A stretch of 27,572 nt of DNA from a virus. Its lineage: Duplodnaviria > Heunggongvirae > Uroviricota > Caudoviricetes. Below are positions 16,748 through 18,946 of this stretch, one piece after another (position 1 is the first letter of the stretch; every line of letters begins with the position of its first letter). The stretch lies in the IMG/VR virus record IMGVR_UViG_2639762873_000006, positions 1-27,572 of that record, one strand, 5' to 3'. The notes beneath the pieces were generated by a model that saw nothing but the letters and a program-made list of their open reading frames with translations, did no database searches and was not told the origin of the DNA. A program made the position numbers and the translations under genes.

Positions 16748-18946
16748 ATGGCAAAGAAAGACGATGAAATCAAAGTAGTGATAACTGGTGACAGTACCGG
16801 ATTATCGAAATCACTACAGGAAGCAGAAAATAAGATTAATCAGTTTGGTAAGAAAACTGGCGGTGCATTGGGTGGTGTTGCATCAAATACCAGTCAAGTA
16901 TTCGGTACTCTAAGTAAAGGTATCTTAGGTGTGGCGGGTGTTGCCGTAACAGCAGGAACCGCAGTAGCAGCACTAACACTCAAGGTTAATGGTCTAGTAA
17001 GTGAATTAAACCAACTTTCAACGCGTAGTGGTATATCAATCACTCAACTACAGAAATTACAGAAGGCATTTAGAGCAACTGGTATTGATGCCGAAGGTCT
17101 AGCGGATATTTCACAAGATACATCTGATAAAATGGGTGAAGGCTATGCTGCCGGTACTGGTGAGTTTGTAACAGTAATCGAAGAGATGGGCTTAAACATT
17201 AATGACTTTACCAAATATGTAGGTAAGGCTAATGGCGGTATTGAAGCAATGATATCCCTTTACTATAAACTACGTGAAGCGGGTAAAACTCAGGCCGAGA
17301 TAACTTACGCAATGGAAGCTGTAGCGAGTAATGGATCTAGACTAGCTACGGTACTGTCAGATTATAGTAATGAAGCAGAAGCACTACAGCATATTCAGGA
17401 TCAACAAACCACAATTACCGAAGACCAAGCAAAGGCATTTAAAAAGCTGGATGATAATTTAGATAAACTATCTACTACTGGTCAAAATTACCTAGTAGAT
17501 GTACTAACCCCCATCGTACAAGCTACGGTTAATTTAGTTGATGCATTTGGTGAAGAAGCACCTACAGACTTTTTTGACTCACTTATTAAAAAGTCATGGG
17601 CGGCTTATGACGTACTAAAACTAATTACACCATTAGGGGCGGTTGAGAATGCTTATAAGTGGGCGTCCGGTGATGCAGCAGCAGAAAAAGCAGCAGCAGA
17701 AGAACAGCGACGTAATGAAGCATGGCTTAAAAAGAATAAAGAAGAAGGTGATAGAAACTACTCATTATTATTCGGCCCAAAAAATGAAGATGAGTGGAAG
17801 CAGAAGAAAAAAGCTCAGGAAGCAGCAGACAAAGCGAAGAAGGCAGCCGACGCAGCAGCAAAGGCAGCAGCAGCCGCACGTAAGAAAGCAGCAGATGAGC
17901 AAATAGCCGCACAGAAAGCACTAGATAAAATCTTAGTAGATCAAACTACCGGTACTAATGAGCGTCAATTAGCAGAGTTTGAACGCCAGCAAAAAGAAAT
18001 AGTAGAAACTATCAAGAAGAGTGCAAAAACTCTAGGACTATCAGACGAGAAACTACGCCAGATACTTAACGATCAAGTTACAGCAGGTGCAGCCGGACGT
18101 TTAAAAATGATTAATGATATGTTGGGATTTAGTGATCCAAATAAGACTATCAATGATCAGAACGCTCTATTAGCTAGTGGACAAGTTGGGGCAGCAGGAC
18201 AAGCCTTTATTGGTAATCAACTAGACCAACAGTTAGGACTAGATACTACTTCATATGATATGGAAGCAATGAATAAAGAACGTGATGCACTATTAAAGCA
18301 GAACGAACTACTAATTCAGGATAAGGAATCATTCGAAAAACGTAAAGCTGCAATCACTGCAAAATATGCACAACGTGCCGTAGAAATACAGCACCAAGAA
18401 ACTATGCAACTACTAGAAGGTACTGAATCTGCATTTACAGAAATTGGTAACGGTATGGCGGCGGCTTTTGGTGAGTCTAGCGGGGCAGCACAGGCAGCAT
18501 TTGCAGTACAGAAGGGTATCACCATTAGTATGACCATAATGAAGATACAAGAGGCTCTAGCGGGTGCGTTGGCTCTAGGATTCCCGCAGAACATCCCAGC
18601 ATACGCACAGATTGCAGCTATGGGTATGTCTATCATTAGTACCGCAAAGGGTGCAAGTGCAGGTCAATTCCACGGTGGCGTAGACGAGCTAGATTCATCA
18701 ATGGATAACAAGTCTTTCGTACTAAAAGCAGGTGAACGCGTAGTACAACCAGAAGCTAACAAAAAGCTAACTAACTTTCTAGATAATCAGGAAAAAGGCG
18801 GCGGTACTATGGGCGGTGATACTATTATCAATGCCCCATTATATGTATATGGTAGTGATGATGATAAACAATTCCAAGAAAAATTGAAGAAACATCAAAA
18901 CAGTATTGTACAGGCGGTGCGTGATTCACAGAAACGTAACTCATAA
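16748..18946 (+). CDS. tail tape measure protein
   Basis: 732 aa, N-terminal Gly/Ala-rich hydrophobic segment, long Ala/Lys/Glu-rich coiled-coil region; lies between the chaperones and the tip genes. Confidence 0.85.
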   Translation: MAKKDDEIKVVITGDSTGLSKSLQEAENKINQFGKKTGGALGGVASNTSQVFGTLSKGILGVAGVAVTAGTAVAALTLKVNGLVSELNQLSTRSGISITQLQKLQKAFRATGIDAEGLADISQDTSDKMGEGYAAGTGEFVTVIEEMGLNINDFTKYVGKANGGIEAMISLYYKLREAGKTQAEITYAMEAVASNGSRLATVLSDYSNEAEALQHIQDQQTTITEDQAKAFKKLDDNLDKLSTTGQNYLVDVLTPIVQATVNLVDAFGEEAPTDFFDSLIKKSWAAYDVLKLITPLGAVENAYKWASGDAAAEKAAAEEQRRNEAWLKKNKEEGDRNYSLLFGPKNEDEWKQKKKAQEAADKAKKAADAAAKAAAAARKKAADEQIAAQKALDKILVDQTTGTNERQLAEFERQQKEIVETIKKSAKTLGLSDEKLRQILNDQVTAGAAGRLKMINDMLGFSDPNKTINDQNALLASGQVGAAGQAFIGNQLDQQLGLDTTSYDMEAMNKERDALLKQNELLIQDKESFEKRKAAITAKYAQRAVEIQHQETMQLLEGTESAFTEIGNGMAAAFGESSGAAQAAFAVQKGITISMTIMKIQEALAGALALGFPQNIPAYAQIAAMGMSIISTAKGASAGQFHGGVDELDSSMDNKSFVLKAGERVVQPEANKKLTNFLDNQEKGGGTMGGDTIINAPLYVYGSDDDKQFQEKLKKHQNSIVQAVRDSQKRNS

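Follow-up and report, generated by a model that had tools for sequence, protein, structure and literature searches.

An ordinary tail tape measure protein, and the tail module that surrounds it, in a rare E. coli prophage

The window analyzed here is a 27,572-nucleotide stretch of viral DNA (IMG/VR record IMGVR_UViG_2639762873_000006, positions 1 to 27,572), and all of the features described below lie on its plus strand. Its genes for terminase, portal, and head-tail joining are of the lambda type. At positions 16748..18946, an open reading frame (ORF) begins with ATG and runs for 732 codons plus a stop, which are exactly the bounds that an earlier sequence-only reading had given for a tape measure gene. 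By our own arithmetic, the chance of 732 open codons in DNA of ~40% GC, where ~6% of random codons are stops, is ~1e-21. An AAGGA Shine-Dalgarno-like motif lies ~10 nt 5' of the ATG, the stop codon of the upstream ORF falls 1 nt before it, and the first two residues of the product (M1 and A2) do not vary among 28 full-length homologues; these features support a start at 16748 for the ORF, which is a real gene for a 732-amino-acid (aa) protein. Database entries of 584 and 589 aa were considered as short variants that had arisen by natural deletion and were rejected, as they start inside the protein, at Met147, and reflect truncated gene calls.

The gene sits within a tail module of canonical order, namely tail tube protein (TTP), tail assembly chaperones G and G-T, tape measure protein (TMP), distal tail protein (DTP), hub, a DUF6950 peptidase-like protein, and J. 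The TTP (15538..15996; 152 aa) matches Pfam Phage_tail_3 above the curated cutoff (E 2e-7) and phrog_158 (E 1e-18). The gap between TTP and G contains a terminator-like hairpin with a U-run (16008..16042) whose MFE is -13.6 kcal/mol (z -4.67; as good a value was reached in 0 of 200 shuffles), and in most relatives the same gap holds a GC-rich hairpin followed by at least four T's, the stem sequences differing from one relative to another. The hairpin is likely an attenuator. Chaperone G (16064..16366; 100 aa) matches phrog_344 (E 5e-8) and, weakly, Pfam Phage_TAC_13. The G ORF ends in GAAAAAAAATAA, where the slippery heptamer A AAA AAA (16357..16363), a site for -1 programmed frameshifting, stands directly before the stop codon (GAA AAA AAA TAA). 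The -1 frame, which is open from 16327 to 16746, continues from there as far as the TMP gene and ends 1 nt before its start. The predicted G-T fusion would measure ~227 aa, its T part spanning 16363..16746. Relatives are arranged alike, with 130-140 codons open, and in ~60 of the ~66 that could be evaluated the same place is taken by A AAA AAG or A AAA AAA before a TAA, with flanking codons that vary.

Downstream of the TMP gene, the DTP (19014..19568) matches phrog_1302, 'distal tail protein' (E 8e-16), and the DUF2163-like baseplate hub or tip attachment protein (19553..20203) matches phrog_2048 (E 9e-26) and, weakly, Pfam Phage_phiJL001_Gp84_N; a homologue of the hub carries the PGAP name DUF2163. 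The J-like central tail fiber (20595..23897; 1,100 aa) matches phrog_31, 'central tail fiber J' (E 5e-53), as well as Pfam Phage_Tail_Tip and fn3. Between the hub and J lies the 135-aa DUF6950 protein (20188..20595), and it is here that we find the separate NlpC/P60-like protein which the sequence-only reading had placed downstream of the TMP. The resemblance is recognizable by fold only: like the NlpC/P60 domain, the protein has a papain-like alpha+beta fold. C32, which starts a helix at residues 32-44, and H116 are invariant, and they are the only invariant Cys and His residues of the protein. When aligned by eye, H116 falls on the third, polar residue that accompanies the catalytic Cys and His of NlpC/P60 enzymes, and the canonical catalytic His position seems not to be a His. 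The NLPC_P60 profile does not match the protein, for which Pfam gives DUF6950 only; a phmmer search of the PDB with it returned no match; and in an hhalign comparison with lambda gpK nothing but the G-x-x-D-C motif aligned, short of significance (E 0.44).

The family of the 732-aa protein is identified by PHROG 13674, 'tail length tape measure protein', which matches it at E 1e-75 with residues 1-729 on profile positions 1-756 of 764. Nine further TMP families in PHROG also match, among them phrog_1506, 2854, 9483, 339, 8125, 1538, 2276, and 12506. Pfam and NCBIfam each returned 0 families for the protein, and Pfam gave nothing relevant, including no TMP model, for the 28 homologues; the Pfam lambda models TMP_2 and Tape_meas_lam_C matched neither the TMP nor any homologue. 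Sequence and profile searches of the PDB gave a marginal match to the TMP of the myophage Pa193 (9b45; E 1e-3) and otherwise chance matches only, and hhalign comparisons with lambda gpH (E 0.047, probability 1%) and T5 pb2 (E 0.008) were not significant. A copy of the protein in an E. coli prophage, 96% identical, is labeled 'hypothetical' in RefSeq. E. coli WGI31CT (NZ_CM135810) is one lysogen, with its prophage located in yegD. Among 50,697 phage records, megablast with the TMP gene found no match, and tblastn with the protein found only partial matches of <40% identity. The best of these was to DCP80, a poorly annotated record filed under T4-like phages, which holds a distant copy of the whole tail module. 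The collections searched yielded no relative whose tail has been imaged.

The TMP is rich in Ala, Lys, Gly, and Gln, and 73% of it is helical in an AF2 model of low confidence (mean pLDDT 56). Residues 54-81 (16907..16990) make up a Gly/Ala/Val-rich, hydrophobic, transmembrane-like stretch (Kyte-Doolittle 19-residue window maximum of 1.93) that aligns collinearly with a hydrophobic stretch in lambda gpH, though short of significance. The only confidently modeled part is residues 84-230 (16997..17437), predicted as a bundle of short helices with a pLDDT of 81-93 per 10-residue block. This bundle is an N-terminal module common to many TMPs: tblastn matches to the TMPs of Serratia, Klebsiella, and Dickeya phages cover residues 84-301, and remote TMP representatives have profile positions 1-400 in common. 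A hypervariable spacer with Trp residues at 284, 305, 326, and 350 occupies residues ~260-360 (17525..17827), and mean identity to the window protein is 7-12% there, compared with 30-78% elsewhere in the TMP. Sequence and hydropathy reveal a second, Ala/Gly-rich hydrophobic stretch at residues 570-635 (18455..18652; mean identity of 61-67% across relatives). The protein ends in a mostly non-helical module, residues 636-732 (18653..18943; QFHGGVD...GERVVQPEANKKL...), which is its most conserved part (57-78% identity, with Q640, H642, G644, G662, E663, and R664 invariant). In the AF2 model, whose pLDDT is low here, the module is coil apart from two short helices; we presume it to be the end that binds the hub.

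The lengths of related TMPs fall into two classes. The main class measures 735 ± 5 aa (45 sequences) in a family that extends to relatives of only ~37% identity, and the second measures 805 ± 9 aa, the net addition of 45 to 70 residues mapping to the central spacer. More remote TMPs, of 620-1196 aa, have only the end modules in common. Such a tight length over divergent sequence, along with a second class that differs in the spacer, provides indirect support for a ruler-like role of the protein.

Next to the plain TTP, the module carries a second tail tube paralogue that is fused to a long fiber (12047..15481; 1,144 aa). Its first 150 residues are 33% identical to the TTP (E 3e-19) and match phrog_158 over residues 1-144, the protein further matches tail-fiber PHROGs, and residues 1027-1081 constitute a Peptidase_S74 chaperone domain. 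The fusion is kept beside a plain TTP in ~50 relatives, and no relative with enough upstream sequence lacks it. In contrast to the steady length of the TMP, the fusion varies from 741 to 1,244 aa across the TMP loci, with a fiber part of 600-1,100 aa that ends in an S74 intramolecular chaperone. We offer, as a tentative idea that may well prove wrong, that the fusion forms a dedicated ring of the tube or co-polymerizes with the plain subunit, such that long trimeric fibers would be anchored in the tube wall and not at the tip or collar, and that the 735- and 805-aa TMP classes would be natural tail-length variants of such a tube. Fibers anchored directly in the tube wall were not found described for cultured phages or in a review of tail tubes.

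The sequence-only reading had taken the 732-aa protein for a tape measure devoid of any obvious lysozyme or peptidase motif, and our searches bear it out on both points. One could instead read the ORF as some other long helical virion or internal protein, with tail length set by something else, and the silence of Pfam and NCBIfam and the 'hypothetical' label of the RefSeq homologue would suit that reading. [quoted passage not shown] The protein is a genuine but ordinary TMP of a rare E. coli prophage. As for enzymatic function, Pfam, NCBIfam, the PDB, Foldseek, and a motif scan were all without an enzyme signal. No enzymatic Pfam family was found in the TMP or in any of the 28 homologues; Foldseek with the AF2 model returned nothing below E 0.3 and only generic helical proteins; and the scan found no Cys, four His, no HExxH, no HxH, and a single HxxxD. 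Because the model has low confidence, its helix content is weak evidence, and so is the empty result of the fold search. None of the muralytic motifs known to be embedded in TMPs (T5 M23-like; TM4/Barnyard Rpf, motif 3; SLT/lysozyme) is detectable in the window TMP. The idea that the invariant HGGVD is one half of an M23 site was discarded, the HxH half being absent. A divergent wall-degrading activity could be sought in the C-terminal module, with H642-x3-D646 as a remnant or variant of an M23-type metal site: H642 and G644 are conserved, D646 is present in at least 90% of sequences, and a hydrophobic stretch followed by a C-terminal piece of ~95 aa resembles the layout of T5 pb2, where a metallopeptidase motif sits in a C-terminal fragment of 92 aa (PMC10038345). 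We judge such an activity very unlikely, however, as the protein has neither HxH nor a second metal-ligand motif and only its four His in total, Pfam finds no peptidase or lysozyme in the homologues, hhalign detects no similarity to the C terminus of pb2, the region is modeled as coil at low confidence, and a nearby gene encodes a separate protein with the NlpC/P60 fold. Cell-wall cutting, if there is any, would probably fall to that DUF6950 protein, three genes downstream of the TMP.

For the same TMP, the sequence-only reading had predicted a tail of about 110 nm, and its arithmetic is correct (732 x 0.15 nm = 109.8 nm). The figure refers to the tube alone, not to the tube together with the tip and central fiber. 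The multiplier is the Katsura constant of 0.15 nm/aa, and for TP901-1 a value of 0.145 nm/aa with a 127-aa offset has been reported (PMC5099701). The lambda tail measures 132.7 nm and 31 discs with a TMP of 853 aa (PMC12617516); that of T5 measures 160 nm with a TMP of 1219 aa. Applied to 732 aa, the whole-protein ratios of lambda (0.156 nm/aa), T5 (0.131 nm/aa), and TP901-1 (0.126 nm/aa) give 114, 96, and 92 nm, respectively, and the TP901-1 regression gives 88 nm. Because these values span 88-114 nm, 'about 110 nm' is reasonable but high, within the range set by imaged phages and near its top, and we predict for the non-contractile tail a tube of ~90-115 nm, or ~22-28 rings. A shorter tube, of ~75-95 nm, would result if only part of the TMP measured, the N-terminal bundle (residues 84-230) and the C-terminal ~100 residues being folded or lodged in the terminator or tip. 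The TP901-1 regression, which leaves 127 residues that add no length, is in keeping with a partial ruler, as are the tube of the Rhodobacter capsulatus gene transfer agent (RcGTA), spanned by only a 113-residue helix of a 216-aa TMP (PMC7296036), the 80 nm obtained when the helical residues of the AF2 model are multiplied by 0.15 nm, and the confident modeling of residues 84-230 as a compact bundle. Should that bundle and the non-helical last ~100 residues not be extended inside the tube, the effective ruler would shrink to about 80-95 nm. Against these stand the whole-protein ratios of lambda and T5, which lead to 96-114 nm, and the observation that deleting an embedded 114-aa motif of the TM4 TMP shortens the tail by ~20 nm (PMC1796659), meaning that embedded modules count towards length; moreover, an AF2 model of a monomer is uninformative on the metastable state inside the tube. 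On balance, we regard a partial ruler as possible but rather unlikely.

Several known systems invite comparison with the window TMP. Lambda gpH, a protein subject to cleavage, likewise sits after the frameshifted chaperones G and G-T and before tip genes of the M/L/K/(I)/J type, and it likewise lacks enzymatic activity, as judged for the window TMP by domain search. The window TMP is 121 aa shorter than the 853-aa gpH and has no significant sequence relation to it, and unlike lambda, which has gpI, the window has no separate gpI gene between its K-like and J-like genes. The best-calibrated ruler is the 937-aa TMP of TP901-1, a helical protein that has hydrophobic regions and in which both the N- and the C-terminal end are essential (PMC5099701). 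TP901-1 is a phage of Gram-positive bacteria, no sequence relation between the two TMPs was detected, and its TMP has clear 11/18-residue repeats, whereas the gene for the window TMP shows only two weak short DNA repeats. RcGTA has the same downstream order as the window (g11 TMP, g12 DTP, g13 hub, g14 peptidase, and g15 megatron), both comprising a DTP, a DUF2163-type hub, a peptidase or peptidase-like protein of ~135-150 aa, and a large tip protein. RcGTA g11 is a helical ruler with ~100 non-helical C-terminal residues, analogous to residues 636-732 of the window TMP, and the separate small peptidase g14 is believed to leave the particle before the TMP does (PMC7296036). The RcGTA TMP has only 216 aa for five tube discs, compared with 732 aa in the window, and g14 is a recognized NlpC/P60 peptidase of demonstrated activity, while its DUF6950 counterpart is a putative one, by fold. 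T5 pb2 (1219 aa) is a ruler that, as in the window TMP, has a hydrophobic stretch before a short C-terminal fragment (PMC10038345). Unlike pb2, with its metallopeptidase motif, and gp17 of mycobacteriophage TM4, with its peptidoglycan-hydrolase motif, the window TMP contains no such motif that we could detect.

We consider it likely that the protein is the TMP of a lambda-like, temperate phage that has a non-contractile tail and is integrated in E. coli, and that it acts as a helical ruler, contributes to an envelope channel, and lacks a muralytic domain. By analogy with lambda, TP901-1, and T5, G and G-T would hold several copies of the largely helical TMP, whose C termini (residues ~636-732) would dock in a tip complex of the DTP, hub, DUF6950 protein, and J-like fiber. 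The 152-aa TTP would then polymerize around the TMP and stop at its N-terminal end, and in this way the number of residues would set the number of rings. Upon infection, the TMP would be expelled, and the hydrophobic stretches at residues 54-81 and at residues 570-635 would probably help form a trans-envelope channel, with local peptidoglycan cleavage, if any, by the 135-aa NlpC/P60-fold protein, as has been proposed for RcGTA g14.

The tape measure rule dates from the 1980s, and a prediction of 110 nm is a routine application of it. The TMP family is missed by Pfam and NCBIfam, yet its profile reaches >2700 cluster representatives at E <= 1e-10, and the DUF6950 protein, to which the name 'ornithine carbamoyltransferase' is sometimes wrongly given, can be annotated as a tail protein with an NlpC/P60 fold. 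The tube-fiber fusion is more interesting than the TMP itself and is worth a structural look. Lastly, should a member of the family be induced and imaged, the conserved length of the TMP and its two length classes would put the ruler model to a clean natural test.

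[quoted passage not shown] An AAGGA motif lies ~10 nt 5' of the ATG, the preceding ORF ends 1 nt short of it, and Met1 and Ala2 show no variation across 28 full-length homologues; an open frame of 732 aa cannot have arisen by chance at ~40% GC. TMP residues 1-729 align with PHROG family 13674, "tail length tape measure protein" (E 1e-75), and nine further tape-measure PHROGs align with portions of the protein. Pfam and NCBIfam searches of TMP returned zero families, and Pfam found nothing relevant in the 28 homologues. The single match in a PDB sequence search was marginal (E 1e-3) and fell on gp41 of Pseudomonas myophage Pa193, itself a tape measure protein. 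RefSeq names the homologue in the prophage of E. coli WGI31CT "hypothetical protein." TMP works in the manner of lambda gpH and of the tape measure of TP901-1, yet by sequence it is not detectable as a member of their curated families. Gene context is what decides its identity as a tape measure.

The window, at ~39% GC, represents the structural half of a siphophage resembling lambda. Its head genes encode a small terminase, a gpA-type large terminase, a lambda-family portal, a protease/scaffold-capsid fusion, and head-tail joining proteins. The fusion is the 632-aa head protein (9407-11305, +), whose N-terminal ~360 aa match phrog_4523, "major head and protease protein," and whose capsid domain occupies residues 369-629. 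Farther along, a phage lysozyme gene (25453-25905, -) adjoins a SegE-like GIY-YIG endonuclease gene (25895-26383, +), and the presence of the latter beside a lysis gene may reflect a homing-endonuclease insertion. Early-region genes (1-5000) are mostly without a Pfam match. The window is prophage DNA, 96% identical to the prophage of E. coli WGI31CT. That prophage (locus L001; NZ_CM135810.1, 106329-148527) is inserted in yegD with a serine recombinase alongside, and a match occurs in just 2 of 5426 complete E. coli genomes.

The tail genes run in the order tube-fibre fusion (12047-15481, +), plain tail tube protein (TTP; 15538-15996, +), tail assembly chaperone G (16064-16366, +), a -1 frame ORF, TMP, distal tail protein, DUF2163-type baseplate hub, DUF6950 protein, and J-like central fibre. 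G ends in GAA AAA AAA TAA, and the -1 frame (+) is open at 16327-16746, ending at the base before the TMP start. Because that frame stays open from 16327 to the TMP start, a slip on A AAA AAA would yield a predicted G-T fusion of ~227 aa. We surveyed 78 related IMG/VR loci for this arrangement, about 66 of which were evaluable, and found A AAA AAA or A AAA AAG right before the G stop in about 60. The loci with the slippery site have 130 to 140 open codons in the -1 frame, and the codons flanking the site vary from locus to locus. This is the conserved frameshift that is reportedly a hallmark of tail assembly chaperone genes lying ahead of a tape measure gene, as described by Xu et al. in 2004. 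The gap between TTP and G holds a terminator-like hairpin with a U-run (16008-16042, +; minimum free energy -13.6 kcal/mol, z -4.7), and most relatives (loci L003-L079) carry a GC-rich hairpin followed by a T run in the same gap, with differing stem sequences. This hairpin is probably an attenuator that fixes how much tube protein is made relative to tape measure; it would lower expression of the chaperones and TMP compared with the tube protein.

Among 65 full-length members of the TMP family, the window's included, lengths fall into two discrete classes, 735±5 aa (n=45, with the window's TMP) and 805±9 aa (n=20), while identity inside the family is as low as about 37%; the adjacent tube-fibre fusion in the same loci ranges from 741 to 1244 aa. 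Sequence that drifts at constant length is what a ruler predicts, and it lends the role indirect support. The ~70-residue difference between classes maps to hypervariable residues about 260-360 (17525-17827; loci L003-L080). In the window's TMP this segment has Trp at 284, 305, 326, and 350, spaced by 21, 21, and 24 residues. Database entries of 584 and 589 aa were considered as natural deletions and rejected as truncated gene calls from the internal Met147. Identity to the window's TMP peaks at the C-terminal end (57-78%) and drops as low as 7-12% over residues 271-360. When 1.84 billion cluster representatives were searched with a profile, 9135 relatives passed E <= 1e-3 and 2765 passed E <= 1e-10; in distant relatives (620-1196 aa) the common part is limited to an N-module (about 1-400) or a C-module (about 500-730). 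This conservation profile and the sharing of modules by distant relatives point to conserved modules at the two ends, with a middle between them that is free to vary. The AlphaFold2 (AF2) model from 28 sequences is 73% helix at low overall confidence (mean pLDDT 56); only residues 84-230 are confidently modelled (pLDDT 81-93), as short helices packed in a bundle, and helix is largely absent from the last ~100 residues. Two segments are hydrophobic, residues 54-81 and about 570-635.

No enzymatic domain is detectable in TMP. Sequence libraries, PDB sequence and profile searches, and a fold search gave no lysozyme, transglycosylase, or peptidase signal, although the negative fold search is weak because the AF2 model is poor. 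Ala, Lys, Gly, and Gln are abundant in TMP; with 0 Cys it cannot be a Cys peptidase, and with 4 His and no HExxH or HxH it lacks the usual zinc peptidase sites. The invariant H642-G-G-V-D646 supplies only half of an M23 motif, and no similarity to the muralytic C terminus of T5 pb2 was found. Domain searches (Pfam, NCBIfam, and PDB) and the motif scan thus bear out the earlier remark that the protein shows no obvious lysozyme or peptidase motif. That reading had also pointed to a separate NlpC/P60-like protein downstream, a remark that is supported by fold and by gene order. Pfam places the protein in question (20188-20595, +; 135 aa) in DUF6950; a PDB sequence search yielded no relative, and we found no literature on it. 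In its AF2 model (22 homologues, pLDDT 93) the invariant Cys32 starts helix 32-44 in a position like that of a papain-like nucleophile, a second invariant residue is His116, and a GD(I/L)W-like motif is made up of D88, G89, and D90; judged by eye, a residue other than His stands where the canonical catalytic His would be. The modelled fold is established as NlpC/P60-like, and the peptidase role is putative. The surrounding gene order is the same as in the Rhodobacter gene transfer agent (RcGTA), in which g14 is a separate 150-aa peptidase that breaks down peptidoglycan and is required for assembly; its probable location is the tail channel, beneath the tape measure (PMC7296036). Several NCBI homologues of the DUF6950 protein (among P0067-P0088) are named "ornithine carbamoyltransferase," evidently a propagated misannotation.

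The sequence-only reading had predicted a tail of about 110 nm, and 732 × 0.15 nm is indeed 109.8 nm. Calibration on studied phages gives 114 nm from lambda (0.156 nm/aa; tube of 132.7 nm, 31 discs, 853 aa; PMC12617516), 96 nm from T5 (0.131 nm/aa; tube of 160 nm, PMC10038345, and 1219 aa from gene length), and 92 nm from the whole TP901-1 protein (0.126 nm/aa; 118 nm, 937 aa; PMC5099701). The TP901-1 deletion-series regression (0.145 nm/aa with a 127-aa offset; PMC5099701) gives 88 nm. In TM4, a 114-aa deletion shortened the tail by ~20 nm (PMC1796659). By analogy, one can defend a predicted tube length of about 90-115 nm, which corresponds to about 22-28 rings at 3.8-4.3 nm each, and 110 nm is near the top of that range. 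A "tail length" taken from a micrograph could exceed the tube by tens of nm because it would include the tip and the 1100-aa central fibre. No cultured or imaged relative was found in the phage collection.

The 1144-aa tube-fibre fusion begins with a complete tube-protein domain (residues 1-150; 33% identity to the plain 152-aa TTP, E 3e-19) and continues into a fibre part of ~1000 aa with an intramolecular chaperone domain (Peptidase_S74) at its end. The order of fusion then plain TTP is kept in about 50 IMG/VR relatives. A tblastn search of cultured phages with the fusion's N-terminal domain gave no match beyond a distant copy in the record of Escherichia phage DCP80 (locus L002, PQ671644.1, 5490-25868). 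This 141-kb record, classed as a T4-like Gaprivervirus, holds a distant copy (28-46% identity) of the entire siphophage head-tail module, including capsid fusion, tube-fibre fusion, TTP, TMP, hub, and J-like fibre, annotated almost wholly as hypothetical. The record may be a chimeric assembly.

On the paradigms of lambda, TP901-1, T5, and RcGTA, TMP would be coated by G and G-T, and its conserved C-terminal ends would dock into the tip complex. Tube protein would then polymerise along TMP up to its N-terminal end, where a terminator would cap the tube. At infection the tip would open, the small peptidase-like protein would be expelled first and TMP next, and the hydrophobic stretches of TMP may help form a channel. 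PHROGs already includes the TMP family, which Pfam and NCBIfam lack and RefSeq does not name as such. As a tape measure it is an ordinary finding, and its neighbour, the tube-fibre fusion, is the more interesting of the two.
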